Source of the DNA: an uncultured Actinomycetes bacterium
GTDB taxonomy: Bacteria; Actinomycetota; UBA4738; HRBIN12
Length of the DNA: 64,000 nucleotides
Assembly: GCA_964640085.1 (NCBI GenBank)
Contig: CAZXFA010000010.1
Span: 9,805-73,804, forward strand
Direction: 5' to 3'
Shown here: positions 1,795-7,702 of the stretch, piece by piece
Layout: each line of letters starts with the position of its first letter
Position numbering within the stretch: the stretch's first letter is position 1
Position numbers and translations under genes: made by a program
Notes under the pieces: generated by a model
Databases searched by the model: none
Seen by the model: only the letters and a program-made list of their open reading frames with translations
What the model was told of the DNA's origin: nothing

Positions 1795-1992
1795 TCAGTG
1801 CTTCGCCGGCCACAGCACGGCCGCGAGCGCGGCCCGAGCGAACCGGCGGGCGGCCCCCCGATCGTCCGCGATCCGCGAACGGCGTGTGGCCCTGGCGACC
1901 CGCTCGAGCTCCGCCTCGCGGACGCGGTCGGCGATCCGGTGCCGCGCCATCTCTCCGCTCAGCATCTCGGCCCTCCTCGTCTCGTCAGGCAC
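1795..1992 (-). CDS. hypothetical small basic protein (65 aa), GTG start, weak support
   Basis: ORF from the six-frame track. No convincing SD and no recognisable domain; it may be spurious. Confidence 0.2.
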   Translation of the reverse strand: MPDETRRAEMLSGEMARHRIADRVREAELERVARATRRSRIADDRGAARRFARAALAAVLWPAKH

Positions 1993-2095
1993 CCACGTTA
2001 TGGGGAGCGGTCCTGGGGCGCGGTGATCGGAGGCACGACCCGCGGGTGACGTCCGTCACGTTGCAACCGGTCGCTCAGCCGCGGAAGATGCGCGC

Positions 2096-2776
2096 GTGGG
2101 AGAGATGCTCCGACGAGCGTTCGCGGTGGCTGTCGGCTGTGCCGCGGCGTGGGCCATCGCACCGACCGCGGGAGCTCAGACCCCGGCCGCCACGCCACAG
2201 GTCGACGGGGAGGTCTCGGGGGTTCTGGCGCCCGGCGGTGCCCTCACGATGCGGGTCGAGGCGCTGATGCCCGGGGGGTGGGAGGGCCTCCACCTGGTCG
2301 AGGTGGTCGTGATCGTCGAGGGGCGTGAGGTCGATCACCTCCGGTACGACATCGAGGACACCCGGCTCGCGCTGGGCGATCAGGAGATGGTGGTCGGGAC
2401 CGGTGATGCCGTCGTCGGGAAACTGGTGCGGCTCGCCGGATCCCGGGTGGTCGTGACGACCGGGGCCGGTCACCTGTCCTTCACCGCCACCGCCCAGGTG
2501 CTGCGGGAGATCCCGGACGATGCCCGGTTCCGACTCTCGGTGACCGGGGACCGGGGGGAGCACGCATCCGTGACGCGTCGCCTCACCAGGCAGGAGCCCG
2601 AGGGCCTCACGTGGACGACGGTGGTAGCCGCGGTGATCGCGGCGCTGCTCGCGGGGGGGTTCGTCGGGAACCTCTACGCCTCGCGCCGGCGTCCGTCGCC
2701 GCGGCTGTCCGTGTACGGCGCGATCCGCCGCCGCTTGGACGAGGAGCGTTCCTCTTCCGCAGAGGCGAGGCGGTGA
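2096..2776 (+). CDS. secreted single-pass membrane protein (signal peptide, about 150-aa ectodomain, C-terminal TM helix and basic tail); hypothetical
   Basis: Signal peptide MLRRAFAVAVGCAAAWAIAPTAGA and C-terminal TM helix TWTTVVAAVIAALLAGGFVG followed by an RRRPSPR tail. Its stop overlaps the GTG of the next gene (GTGA at 2773-2776). Confidence 0.5.
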   Translation: MGEMLRRAFAVAVGCAAAWAIAPTAGAQTPAATPQVDGEVSGVLAPGGALTMRVEALMPGGWEGLHLVEVVVIVEGREVDHLRYDIEDTRLALGDQEMVVGTGDAVVGKLVRLAGSRVVVTTGAGHLSFTATAQVLREIPDDARFRLSVTGDRGEHASVTRRLTRQEPEGLTWTTVVAAVIAALLAGGFVGNLYASRRRPSPRLSVYGAIRRRLDEERSSSAEARR

Positions 2777-4938
2777 CCGAGGTCGCCGCTCGCGGCGTGT
2801 ACGCGGCCGCGACCCGGGCGGCGGGGAGCTTCCCGGCGGACGATGGTCTGGAACTGTGGCGCCGGATCGCAGAGCGGATCGATCCTGTGGCCTTCCGACC
2901 GCGGCTGCACCCCGACGTGGAGGTGAAGACGTTCCGGCTCCGATGGGGCAACGACTACGCGATGATCGCCAGCCCCGACCGCTCGATGCACTACCGGCTC
3001 GAGCCCTGGGAGGCGGAGATCCTCGACCTGATGGTCGGAACGCGCACCGTGAAGGAGATCGTCGTCGAGCGGTTCCAGGACTCGGGCGACATGGAGCTCT
3101 CGGGCGTTGCCGACCTGGTGGAGCAGCTCCGCGCTGGTGGGTTCCTCGCGACCCCCTACGTCGACGTCCCGGCGATGGTCCGGGGAGCGCTCCGGCCCGT
3201 ATCCGGCATGCGGGCGGTGTCCAGGCGGTTCGTGCGAACGCTCACGCTCGAGTGGGAGGGTGCCCACCGGCTGGTTGTGTGGTTCTACCGGAACGGGCTG
3301 CAGCTGTTCTTCAACCCGGTGGTGGTGGTCGTGGGGCTGGTCGCGTCGTTCGGAGGGTTCGCGGCCTTCGTGTCGCTGTTCCGGACCGGTCGGTTCGAGC
3401 TCGCAGCTGGGGACGCGGCCGTCGCCTCCCTGATCCTCCTCGCGATGAACTACGTCCTCACGTTCGTGCACGAGCTCGCCCACGCGGTCGTCCTCGTCCA
3501 CCACGGTCGACGCGTGAAGAGCGCCGGGTTCATGATCTACTTCGGGTCGCCCGCGTTCTTCGTGGACGCTTCGGACGGCCTGATGATGGAGCGGGGCCCG
3601 CGCATCATGCAGGCCTTCGGCGGTCCGTTCGCCGAGCTCGTGATCGCCGGCGCCGCCTCGTTCGCGGCCTGGATCGCGCCCGACACGTGGGCGGCTCCCA
3701 TCCTGTACCGCTTCGCGCTGCTCAACTACTTCATCATCTTCCTGAACCTGGTCCCCATGCTGGAGCTCGACGGCTACTTCATCCTCTCCGACCTGATCCA
3801 GGTCCCCGATCTCCGGCCCCGTTCGCTGCGGTTCGTCCGCTACGACCTCTGGACCAAGCTGCGACGTCGCGAGCGGTGGACGAAGCAAGAGGGCGGCCTC
3901 GCCCTGTACGGGATCCTCGGCGTCGCGTTCACGATCTTCGCGCTCGTCACGTCCGTCTACTTCTGGGAGGAGGTGTTCGGGGGCCTCATCCGGCGCCTGT
4001 GGGAGGGCGGGTCCGTGGGTCGGCTGCTCCTGATCGCCCTCGTCCTGTTCGTGACCGGTCCGGTCCTCCGAGGGGCCATCGCCCTGGTGCGTAGCCTGGT
4101 GCGACGCGGGATGGGTGTCGTCCGGGCGGTGCGGTTCCGACTCCAGACGCGGTGGCGGATCGAGGCAGCCAGGGCGATCGACGCGCTCCCCATCCTCGAG
4201 GACCTACCCGAGGACGTCCTGTCTGACCTCGCCGGACGGGTGCAGCTGCGCACCTTCGCCGCGGGACGACCGGTGTTCCGTCAGGGCGATCGGCCGGATG
4301 CCTTCTACGTGATCCGCCGTGGGAGGCTCCACGTGATCGAGGAGAACCCGGGGACCGGAACGGAGCGGGTGATCCGGGTCTTGGGCCCGGGCGAGTCGTT
4401 CGGCGAGCTCGGGCTGATCGACGGCCAAGCGCGCTCGGCCACGGTTCGGCCGGTGGAGGACTGCCAGCTGTTCGTGGTGGACGAGGGGACCTTCGACCGT
4501 CTGCTCGCCGACCCGATCCGGGTGCCCGATCTGGCACCCACGCTCCAGGCCGTGGCGGAGCTCCGACGGCTTCCGCCGTTCGCCGGGCTGGAGGCGGCCG
4601 ACCTCTCGGAGGTGCTCGCTCGTGGCGGCTGGGTGAACGTCTCGCCGGGACGGGTCGTGATCGAGCAGGGCCAGGAGGGGGACGCCTTCTACGTGGTCGG
4701 ATCCGGCCGGCTGGAGGTGGCGGTCGACGGCGCCCGGGTGCGCACCCTCGGCCCGGGGGGCCATTTCGGCGAGATCGCCCTCCTGCTGGGGGTGCCGCGG
4801 ACGGCGAGCGTCGTGGCCAGGACCCCCGCCCGGGTCTTCCGCCTGGACCGCGAGGGCTTCGACCGGGTGCTCGCCGAGGCGTTCCGGCGGGGGACCCTCG
4901 ATCCGGCAGCACCGATCGATCGAACCTGGCAGCATTAG
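2773..4938 (+). CDS. M50 family (site-2 protease-like) intramembrane zinc metalloprotease fused to two C-terminal cyclic-nucleotide-binding (CAP effector) domains
   Basis: An HELAHAVVLVHHG (HExxH) motif sits inside a TM helix, with multiple further TM helices. There are two cNMP-binding signatures (FGELGLIDGQARSATVRP and FGEIALLLGVPRTASVVA), each preceded by an (A)FYVI/VRRG(R)L motif. The start is placed at GTG 2773 (SD GAGGCGAGGCG, GTGA overlap with the upstream gene). The track ORF 2611..4938 extends further 5' in frame. Confidence 0.75.
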   Translation: MTEVAARGVYAAATRAAGSFPADDGLELWRRIAERIDPVAFRPRLHPDVEVKTFRLRWGNDYAMIASPDRSMHYRLEPWEAEILDLMVGTRTVKEIVVERFQDSGDMELSGVADLVEQLRAGGFLATPYVDVPAMVRGALRPVSGMRAVSRRFVRTLTLEWEGAHRLVVWFYRNGLQLFFNPVVVVVGLVASFGGFAAFVSLFRTGRFELAAGDAAVASLILLAMNYVLTFVHELAHAVVLVHHGRRVKSAGFMIYFGSPAFFVDASDGLMMERGPRIMQAFGGPFAELVIAGAASFAAWIAPDTWAAPILYRFALLNYFIIFLNLVPMLELDGYFILSDLIQVPDLRPRSLRFVRYDLWTKLRRRERWTKQEGGLALYGILGVAFTIFALVTSVYFWEEVFGGLIRRLWEGGSVGRLLLIALVLFVTGPVLRGAIALVRSLVRRGMGVVRAVRFRLQTRWRIEAARAIDALPILEDLPEDVLSDLAGRVQLRTFAAGRPVFRQGDRPDAFYVIRRGRLHVIEENPGTGTERVIRVLGPGESFGELGLIDGQARSATVRPVEDCQLFVVDEGTFDRLLADPIRVPDLAPTLQAVAELRRLPPFAGLEAADLSEVLARGGWVNVSPGRVVIEQGQEGDAFYVVGSGRLEVAVDGARVRTLGPGGHFGEIALLLGVPRTASVVARTPARVFRLDREGFDRVLAEAFRRGTLDPAAPIDRTWQH

Positions 4939-4968
4939 CCGGGCTCGAGCTCCGAGGAGAGGGTCGGG

Positions 4969-5187
4969 ATGGATTGCTGGCACTGCCGCAGGACCGCCGT
5001 GGGCGTCTGCCGCTTCTGTGGGCGAGGGATCTGCGAGGACCACGTGGAGACCCTCCCCTTCGTGCTCGAGCTGTTCCGCGGCAAGGAAGGGACGCGCGCC
5101 CTGGTCGTCGAGGATGCCCTCTTCTGCGGCGCGTGTACGCCGCGTCCGGACCCGCTCGACCTCCCGGAGCTCGACTCCGAGGCGTGA
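4969..5187 (+). CDS. small Cys-rich zinc-ribbon protein (DUF2180-like: CxxC...CxxCGxGxC.DH)
   Basis: 72 aa, MDCWHCRRTAVGVCRFCGRGICEDH plus a later CGAC. It sits 30 bp downstream of the protease gene. Confidence 0.5.
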   Translation: MDCWHCRRTAVGVCRFCGRGICEDHVETLPFVLELFRGKEGTRALVVEDALFCGACTPRPDPLDLPELDSEA

Positions 5188-5192
5188 GCGGG

Positions 5193-5232
5193 TGTGACGT
5201 TCGTCACAGCCTCCCGCGTGATGCAGGTCACG
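5193..5232 (+). promoter_or_regulatory. Two CRP/FNR-type palindromic operator candidates: TGTGA-cgttcg-TCACA (5193-5208) and CGTGA-tgcagg-TCACG (5217-5232)
   Basis: Both are perfect inverted repeats with the canonical 6-bp spacer. Their centres are 24 bp apart, about 110-150 bp upstream of the small basic ORF at 5342 and in the same region as the Crp-family regulator gene. Confidence 0.5.
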
Positions 5233-5341
5233 TCCCGGTCGGTGACGCCCGGCACATCGATCGTGTGACGGCGACGCGAGGATGATGAGGTGTGGTGGCG
5301 TCCCCACCGGGGACCGGGATCCCGGAGGGAGGTGAAAGCGA

Positions 5342-5488
5342 GTGGCGGAGAAGAAGATCACCCCGAAGGCCGCGACGGGCAAGGCGGCGAGTGGCACCGG
5401 GAAGGCTGCGGCGACCCGCGTGACCAAGCGTCAGACCAAGCGTCAGACGAAGCGGCAGACGAAGCGGCAGACCAAGCGGACGATCTGA
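5342..5488 (+). CDS. unannotated small basic protein, 48 aa (MAEKKITPKAATGKAASGTGKAAATRVTKRQTKRQTKRQTKRQTKRTI); histone-H1-like / nucleoid- or ribosome-associated candidate
   Basis: GTG start is preceded by a strong SD (GGAGGGAGGTG, 7 nt spacing). The coding part contains five tandem 12-bp repeats (ACCAAGCGTCAG-like) encoding (TKRQ)x5, with TGA at 5486-5488. It is not in the ORF track because it is under 60 aa, and it is followed directly by a perfect hairpin. Confidence 0.55.
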   Translation: MAEKKITPKAATGKAASGTGKAAATRVTKRQTKRQTKRQTKRQTKRTI

Positions 5489-5509
5489 GGTCTTCGTCGT
5501 CGGTACCCC

Positions 5510-5542
5510 GACGGCGGGCCCGACGCGGTCGGGCCCGCCGTC
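5510..5542 (+). terminator. Perfect 15-bp stem hairpin GACGGCGGGCCCGAC-gcg-GTCGGGCCCGCCGTC (intrinsic terminator candidate)
   Basis: Seen directly in the sequence, 22 bp after the stop of the small basic ORF. It argues against the Crp-family ORF starting at 5290. Confidence 0.5.
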
Positions 5543-5589
5543 AGCTTTCGGGCTATCCGCGGAGAAGGGACTTGGCTACGCTTGCGACG

Positions 5590-6330
5590 ATGGTGACGGC
5601 GAGGACCGGGGTCGGGGCGATCGCCCCCACGGAGCTGGTGGGGTCGATGGCCCGGACTCCGCTGTTCGACGGTGCCGCACCGCGAACGATCGCACGGCTG
5701 GCCGAGCGAGGGACCCTGCGTCCGTACCGCCGCGGTACCTACCTGTTCCACCAGGGCGATCTCTCGCCGGAGGTGTTCTTCCTGGTCTCGGGGCGGGTCG
5801 AGATTAGCTCGCTGTCGGCCAGCGGACACCGCCAGCTCCACACCACGCTCGATTCACCGCAGTTCTTCGGCGAGCTCGGGGTGCTCGGAGACATGCCGCG
5901 GAGCGCCGCCGCCCTCGCCCTGGAGGCGTCCACGGTCTGGGTCATGCCCGCGGAGGGCTTCCTCGGATTCCTCGCCGAGGAGCCCGCCGCCTCCCGTGCC
6001 CTCCTCCGCGCGCTGGCACGGCAGGTGACCGCGCACGAGGCGTTCGTCGAGGACCTGCTGTACCTGGACCTGAAGGGGCGGGTGGCCAAGCGGCTGCTCC
6101 AGCTGGTGTCGCCGTCGCTGGACGAGCTCCCCGAGGACGGAGCGGTCGTGCCCTCCATCGTCACCCACGCCGACCTCGCGAGCCTGTGCGGCGGGAGTCG
6201 TGAGAACGTGACCAGGATCCTCTCCGAGTTCCAGCGCCGCGGGATCGTGGAGCGCGATGGCCGGCGGTTCGTGCTGCGGAAGATCGCGGGACTGGCCCAC
6301 CTGGCCGGCGTCCCCGGGGGTTCGAGGTGA
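5590..6330 (+). CDS. Crp/Fnr family transcriptional regulator (cNMP-binding domain plus C-terminal HTH)
   Basis: cNMP-binding domain (TPLFDGAAP...FGELGVLGDMPRSAAALA) and HTH (SRENVTRILSEFQRRGIVERDGRRFVL). The track ORF starts at 5290 but would read through the hairpin and the small ORF. Start chosen at ATG 5590; ATG 5647 (MARTPLFDG, SD GGTGGGG) is also possible. Confidence 0.8.
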   Translation: MVTARTGVGAIAPTELVGSMARTPLFDGAAPRTIARLAERGTLRPYRRGTYLFHQGDLSPEVFFLVSGRVEISSLSASGHRQLHTTLDSPQFFGELGVLGDMPRSAAALALEASTVWVMPAEGFLGFLAEEPAASRALLRALARQVTAHEAFVEDLLYLDLKGRVAKRLLQLVSPSLDELPEDGAVVPSIVTHADLASLCGGSRENVTRILSEFQRRGIVERDGRRFVLRKIAGLAHLAGVPGGSR

Positions 6331-6641
6331 CCGTCCGCGAGCTCCGCCGCTGGTGGGGGCAGACAGTGGCCGCCCACGACTGGCTGGAGGCGGCGAGCGT
6401 CGCTCTCGGCGTGCTCTTCCTCGCGGGGGCGCTGGCGAGCGTCGTTGCGGTCCTCGTCGCGGTGGTGAGCTTGGGGGAGCCCGAGCCCGGGCTCGAGGGC
6501 TCCCAGGGGCTCCTCCAGGCCACCAGGGGATTGGGGGCATTCCTGTTCGGCGCCTTCGCTCTCGTCGCCGTCGCGGTCGGCTGGTTCCTCGCGGGCGAGG
6601 CGATCAGTAGGGCGGCGCGTCGCCTGGTGGGCCGGGGCTGA
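6327..6641 (+). CDS. small 2-TM membrane protein, hypothetical; translationally coupled to the Crp-family regulator (GTGA overlap)
   Basis: 104 aa with two hydrophobic helices. The start GTG overlaps the stop of the Crp-family gene. Confidence 0.45.
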   Translation: MTVRELRRWWGQTVAAHDWLEAASVALGVLFLAGALASVVAVLVAVVSLGEPEPGLEGSQGLLQATRGLGAFLFGAFALVAVAVGWFLAGEAISRAARRLVGRG

Positions 6642-6674
6642 TCGCGGGCCGAGAGGGCGCGGGCCTCGGGCGGC

Positions 6675-7702
<1,028 letters not shown>

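Follow-up and report, generated by a model that had tools for sequence, protein, structure and literature searches.

A predicted intramembrane metalloprotease with tandem cyclic-nucleotide-binding domains suggests peptide maturation under cAMP control in an uncultured actinomycete

Introduction

What does a membrane protease that carries its own cyclic-nucleotide-binding (CNB) domains cut, and does the nucleotide control the cut? This question is raised by a 721-aa protein encoded in a 64-kb window (the whole 64,000-nucleotide stretch of DNA analysed here, from an uncultured Actinomycetes bacterium), which a first-pass annotation had read as a signalling site-2 protease (S2P) of unusual architecture. 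S2P enzymes are known to be controlled by PDZ or CBS domains, by inhibitory proteins or by earlier cuts at site 1, and our literature search found no described example of a cyclic-nucleotide-gated S2P; if real, such an enzyme would add direct second-messenger control to S2P regulation. Here, we find that the protein is an S2P/M50-fold polytopic metalloprotease with two intact C-terminal CNB domains, and the genes conserved around its own point to a role in maturing a small peptide under the control of cAMP.

Results

Architecture of the 721-aa protease

The protease gene (2773–4938, + strand) lies within a real open reading frame at 2611–4938 (+) and encodes, in order, a RiPP-recognition element (RRE), an S2P/M50 core and two CNB domains. 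The GTG at 2773 is the likely start codon: it shares nucleotides with the upstream ORF's stop (GTGA), and homologues of 62–84% identity begin at the equivalent residue. The core spans six helices (3295–4107, +; aa ~175–445). Its HELAH motif (nt 3469–3483, +; aa 233–237) falls within a predicted helix at 215–243, in keeping with the first-pass placement of the motif in a transmembrane (TM) helix, and the second S2P zinc-ligand motif, NLVPMLELDG (nt 3745–3774, +; aa 325–334), sits in a predicted helix at 308–342. The catalytic His, Glu and His and the Pro of the LDG motif are at least 90% conserved across 150 representatives, and L332, D333 and G334 are invariant in the homologue alignment. Pfam matches to Peptidase_M50 (PF02163; 24.2 versus 27.2 bits) and M50B (PF13398; 18 versus 26 bits) are below threshold, so membership in M50 rests on the two motifs and on a fold comparison, which recovered the S2P core fold; many close homologues carry a precomputed PF02163 match. 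On these grounds the protein belongs to the M50/S2P fold and is a predicted zinc protease. The prediction gives six TM helices, a beta-hairpin (aa 248–266) between TM2 and TM3, following the HExxH helix, and a single unbroken helix (aa 413–470) that runs into the first CNB domain; the structure model of aa 1–462 reached a pLDDT of only 65. The loops at aa 343–370 and 441–460 are rich in Arg and Lys, which under the positive-inside rule would place the N-terminus, active site and CNB domains in the cytoplasm.

The two CNB domains lie C-terminal to the core (domain 1, 4174–4542, +, aa ~468–590, with the phosphate-binding cassette (PBC) FGELGLIDGQARSATV at aa 543; domain 2, 4543–4890, +, aa ~591–706, with the PBC FGEIALLLGVPRTASV at aa 665). 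The Pfam search that the first-pass annotation had proposed matched cNMP_binding twice (E = 1.2e-43; 147 bits, cutoff 27.5), with FGELGL...RSA and FGEIAL...RTA intact, bearing out its claim of two complete domains. The PBC pattern G-E-x-A/G-L ... R-S/T-A is present in both domains and conserved family-wide, its Glu and Arg showing full invariance or at least 90% conservation in relatives as distant as ~30% identity. The closest sequence match to the tandem is the CNB-A/B tandem of PKG and PKA-R (E 1e-37 to 1e-30). Since a Ser or Thr follows the Arg in CAP (RSA) and PKG (RTA) alike, the sequence does not discriminate between cAMP and cGMP as the putative ligand.

The N-terminal ~130 aa, overlooked in the first-pass annotation, form a putative PqqD-like RRE (2890–3147, +; aa ~40–125), in which three strands precede three helices and which fold comparison recovered as a three-stranded sheet plus three-helix winged helix. 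The window's own segment has no Pfam PqqD (PF05402) match; nine of nine diverse relatives match PqqD best, three of them above the gathering score, and PqqD is also matched by the relatives P0173, P0207 and P0428. A further relative, P0201, bears a fused AhpC/Redoxin domain.

Relatives among peptide-maturation proteases

The daptide protease profile NF041824 aligns over positions 13–373 of 379, N-terminal domain included (E 6.8e-46), at 157 bits against a curated cutoff of 300, so that by sequence the protein is a related subfamily of the daptide protease and not an equivalog. The YydH/LiaK-EpeP profile NF058609 matches aa 221–344 only (E 6e-10; 39 bits, cutoff 225). Judged by these profiles, the nearest sequence families are HExxH intramembrane proteases of peptide maturation (daptide, YydH/LiaK), not the enzymes of regulated intramembrane proteolysis (RIP) that act on anti-sigma factors. 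The reading as a signalling site-2 protease therefore stands in part: the S2P/M50 fold with tandem CNB domains holds, but the closest relatives by sequence are RiPP-type HExxH proteases. EpeP, TglG and TmoG are M50 peptide proteases, and the daptide and YydH/LiaK-EpeP proteases are M50 enzymes that strip leaders from ribosomal peptides (PMC10885120). CNB domains are not reported on the daptide and YydH/LiaK-EpeP enzymes. We found no daptide or epipeptide biosynthetic genes near the protease, the daptide cluster context being absent; its neighbours in the window are MauE, a TlpA-like redoxin, a hypothetical 226-aa protein, a DUF2180-like protein, Crp and MoaA. Considered as core partners, the MauE and TlpA-like genes upstream were rejected, because they occur in just 8 and 12 of 81 loci.

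Relatives of the 721-aa protein occur in at least 588 species genomes of Actinomycetota, Chloroflexota and Dormibacterota, with more than 120 clusters of homologues at 62% identity or higher; the best 80 loci per scan were read. Of the 150 best representatives, taken from clusters at 50% identity, ~65 have the tandem CNB arrangement, so the architecture is not the unusual one that had been supposed. The protease-CNB fusion itself is not rare, and the family is large and uncharacterised. All relatives seen are automatically annotated as "cyclic nucleotide-binding domain-containing protein" or "CRP-like cAMP-binding protein/Zn-dependent protease". The first-pass annotation had named a common family with a known non-signalling role as grounds for abandoning its reading; in the literature we found no role for this family, signalling or otherwise, and nothing linking M50/S2P with cNMP domains, Iyer et al. 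2009 standing outside that comparison.

A conserved cassette at the crp gene

Downstream of the protease, a perfect predicted CRP box, TGTGACGTTCGTCACA, lies at 5193–5208, and an imperfect second one, CGTGATGCAGGTCACG, at 5217–5232, 24 nt from the first, start to start. The perfect box is the single match to TGTGA-N6-TCACA with at most one mismatch within the 64-kb window. A box at this stringency is present in 71 of 74 clade loci, 44 of them perfect (0.5 loci in shuffled sequences), a median of 149 nt upstream of a small peptide gene. That gene (5342–5488, +; GGAGG 8–9 nt before its GTG) encodes a 48-aa basic peptide, our candidate substrate, with a conserved MAEKKI(S/T)PKAP...AATRVTK followed by a hypervariable basic repeat tail, here (TKRQ)n. 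It is found in 73 of 82 clade loci, and its two conserved motifs are in frame in all 62 of 62 loci at six different spacings. The peptide is highly basic and could alternatively be a nucleic-acid-binding protein co-transcribed with crp.

The next gene (5590–6330, +) encodes a Crp/GlxR-type cAMP receptor transcription factor (Pfam cNMP_binding plus HTH_Crp_2), whose best PDB matches are Mycobacterium tuberculosis Crp (3d0s) and C. glutamicum GlxR (4cyd; E 1e-27); the start listed for its ORF, at 5290, probably lies too far upstream. The gene keeps strand and position in 70 of 81 loci, at 59–85% identity. Within the 64-kb window, tblastn with three cyclase queries and HMM searches found no adenylate cyclase, HMM and tblastn searches found no CNB genes besides Crp and the protease, and a scan of 1900–6700 for sigma-70 promoters and terminators gave nothing above chance.

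Between the protease and the CRP boxes, starting 30 nt past the protease stop, lies the gene for a 72-aa Cys/His-rich, DUF2180-like protein (4969–5187, +), with a weak Pfam DUF2180 match (E 8e-4), eight invariant Cys/His zinc-ligand positions and codon-position entropies of 0.33/0.26/0.99. An RNA in this conserved stretch was considered and rejected: Rfam (E ≤ 1) and ARAGORN returned nothing on 4700–5900, and the stretch is the 72-aa gene. The gene lies 3–46 nt downstream of the protease in 74 of 74 clade loci and is present in five of six Chloroflexota loci; among metagenome loci it is directly downstream in 27 of 51 of the short form and 13 of 17 of the long form. We take this zinc protein to be an obligate partner of the protease, and it could serve as adaptor, inhibitor or second substrate; our literature search found no mention of DUF2180. 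It is nowhere in 17 of the 51 short-form metagenome loci whose downstream sequence is long enough, and among 16 short-form loci with wide flanks only one has Crp adjacent, indicating that the cassette is not universal.

A second precursor-like gene in other phyla

In Chloroflexota, the slot of the 48-aa peptide is taken by Frankia_peptide (PF14407), a family reportedly defined by Iyer et al. in 2009 (Mol Biosyst). Among metagenome loci with wide flanks, it is found in seven of seven long-form and 10 of 16 short-form cases. In 12 Chloroflexota-type loci with the long-form protease adjacent, the same CRP box precedes Frankia_peptide genes by 90–185 nt, and the Chloroflexota cassettes are embedded among genes for class III cyclases, CNB-PP2C and CNB-histidine kinases. 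HMM searches of six-frame translations found no Frankia_peptide in the window or any of the 81 clade loci (L001–L081). In both peptides a conserved leader runs up to R(V/I)(S/T)K and a hypervariable tail comes after it, with two copies in some loci; homology between them was rejected, hhalign giving a probability of 0.6% and aligning only RVTK to RISK. The two occupy one slot with no detectable homology. Frankia_peptide, a predicted RiPP precursor, is described as having a LigA/Nif11-like leader fold (PMC12353581).

Discussion

We propose that cAMP acts on the peptide in two ways, inducing it via Crp and gating its cleavage via the CNB domains of a cytoplasm-facing, RRE-bearing protease, a reading to which we give a probability of about 0.5. 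On this proposal, cAMP-Crp at the CRP boxes would switch on the peptide gene (the 48-aa gene here, a Frankia_peptide-type precursor in Chloroflexota), and the RRE domain would dock the conserved leader of the product. Cyclic nucleotide on the tandem CNB domains might then shift the linker helix and open or activate the active site, much as the CBS domain and linker are proposed to do in SpoIVFB. A cut near the R-(V/I)-(S/T)-K boundary would free the hypervariable tail, which may be exported.

Two alternatives concern the substrate, and we regard both as unlikely. Under classical RIP, the protease would make a cNMP-gated cut in the TM segment of a membrane-tethered regulator. The S2P fold fits such a role, and a candidate is at hand in the 226-aa single-pass membrane protein encoded at 2096–2776 (+), which is without a match in Pfam or NCBIfam, carries a signal peptide, a TM segment near its C-terminus and a basic tail, and whose stop overlaps the protease start. 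It is found in 46 of 82 clade loci, but neither the deeper subclade nor any other phylum has it, and the protease, zinc protein and peptide persist there. Moreover, it is predicted to lie N-out/C-in, the reverse of typical S2P substrates such as RseA and SREBP, the cassette holds no sigma/anti-sigma pair, and both the RRE domain and the kinship with RiPP proteases favour soluble peptides as substrates. Equally doubtful is that the zinc protein is the true substrate or client, clipped for example in its acidic C-terminal tail PRPDPxDLPELD, the basic peptide being unrelated. The zinc protein is indeed the most tightly linked neighbour and is conserved across phyla, and the CRP boxes separate its gene from that of the peptide, which would then form a different transcription unit with crp. 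However, its strong conservation over the whole length and its eight zinc ligands resemble a folded partner rather than a leader-plus-core precursor, and the Chloroflexota loci bear the separate, precursor-like Frankia_peptide gene as well.

Somewhat less likely still is that the CNB domains do not gate the enzyme and serve another ligand, oligomerisation or localisation, leaving a constitutive peptide protease/exporter beside crp. CNB-fold domains in FNR- and CooA-type proteins do bind ligands besides cNMP, but the canonical Gly-Glu...Arg-(Ser/Thr)-Ala cassette is kept in both domains across the family, and the cyclase and CNB-effector genes around the Chloroflexota cassettes also argue for a cyclic-nucleotide input. 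That the protein is an inactive pseudo-protease retained as a membrane-anchored cNMP receptor or scaffold, for which we found nothing positive beyond the sub-threshold Pfam M50 score, is very improbable given HExxH and LDG motifs that are intact here and near-invariant in the 150 representatives.

Returning to cAMP-gated peptide maturation, we advance more tentatively the wider picture of a second-messenger circuit widespread in soil Actinomycetota, Chloroflexota and Dormibacterota, in which one cyclic nucleotide may act twice on the same peptide with a dedicated zinc-finger partner. If so, the output of the circuit would be a lineage-hypervariable peptide, whether signal or weapon. For the biology of RiPPs and peptide signals, the cassette offers a candidate substrate-protease pair with a recognisable leader, a fused RRE and a defined transcriptional input, and it gives functional context to DUF2180-like proteins and Frankia_peptide genes. 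Because the locus sits at the crp gene itself across a whole uncultured soil clade, it could also reveal a non-transcriptional arm of the Crp regulon.

Among known systems, the SpoIVFB-group S2Ps are close in plan: SpoIVFB has the same six TM helices, hairpin after the HExxH helix and linker helix as the 721-aa protein (PMC11486902). The group likewise has HExxH in TM2, followed before TM3 by a re-entrant beta-hairpin, LDG in TM4, an active site that faces the cytoplasm, and a linker leading to a C-terminal nucleotide-binding regulatory module, a CBS domain occupying the position of the two CNB domains here; capture of a soluble or peripheral substrate by strand addition would be a further likeness. 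The 721-aa protein differs from SpoIVFB in its added N-terminal RRE domain, in its marginal sequence similarity (phmmer E 0.0066) and in a setting that has neither a link to sporulation nor BofA or SpoIVFA as partners. In the Eep/RseP-dependent maturation of Firmicutes pheromones, an S2P-family protease likewise makes a short signalling peptide from a small precursor; Eep, by contrast, bears a PDZ domain, acts on signal-peptide-like TM segments and has neither a second-messenger sensor nor an RRE. Set beside the CNB-A/B tandem of PKA-R and PKG and the Crp/GlxR receptor, the effector of cyclic-nucleotide sensing here would be an intramembrane protease, not a kinase, a channel or a DNA-binding domain.

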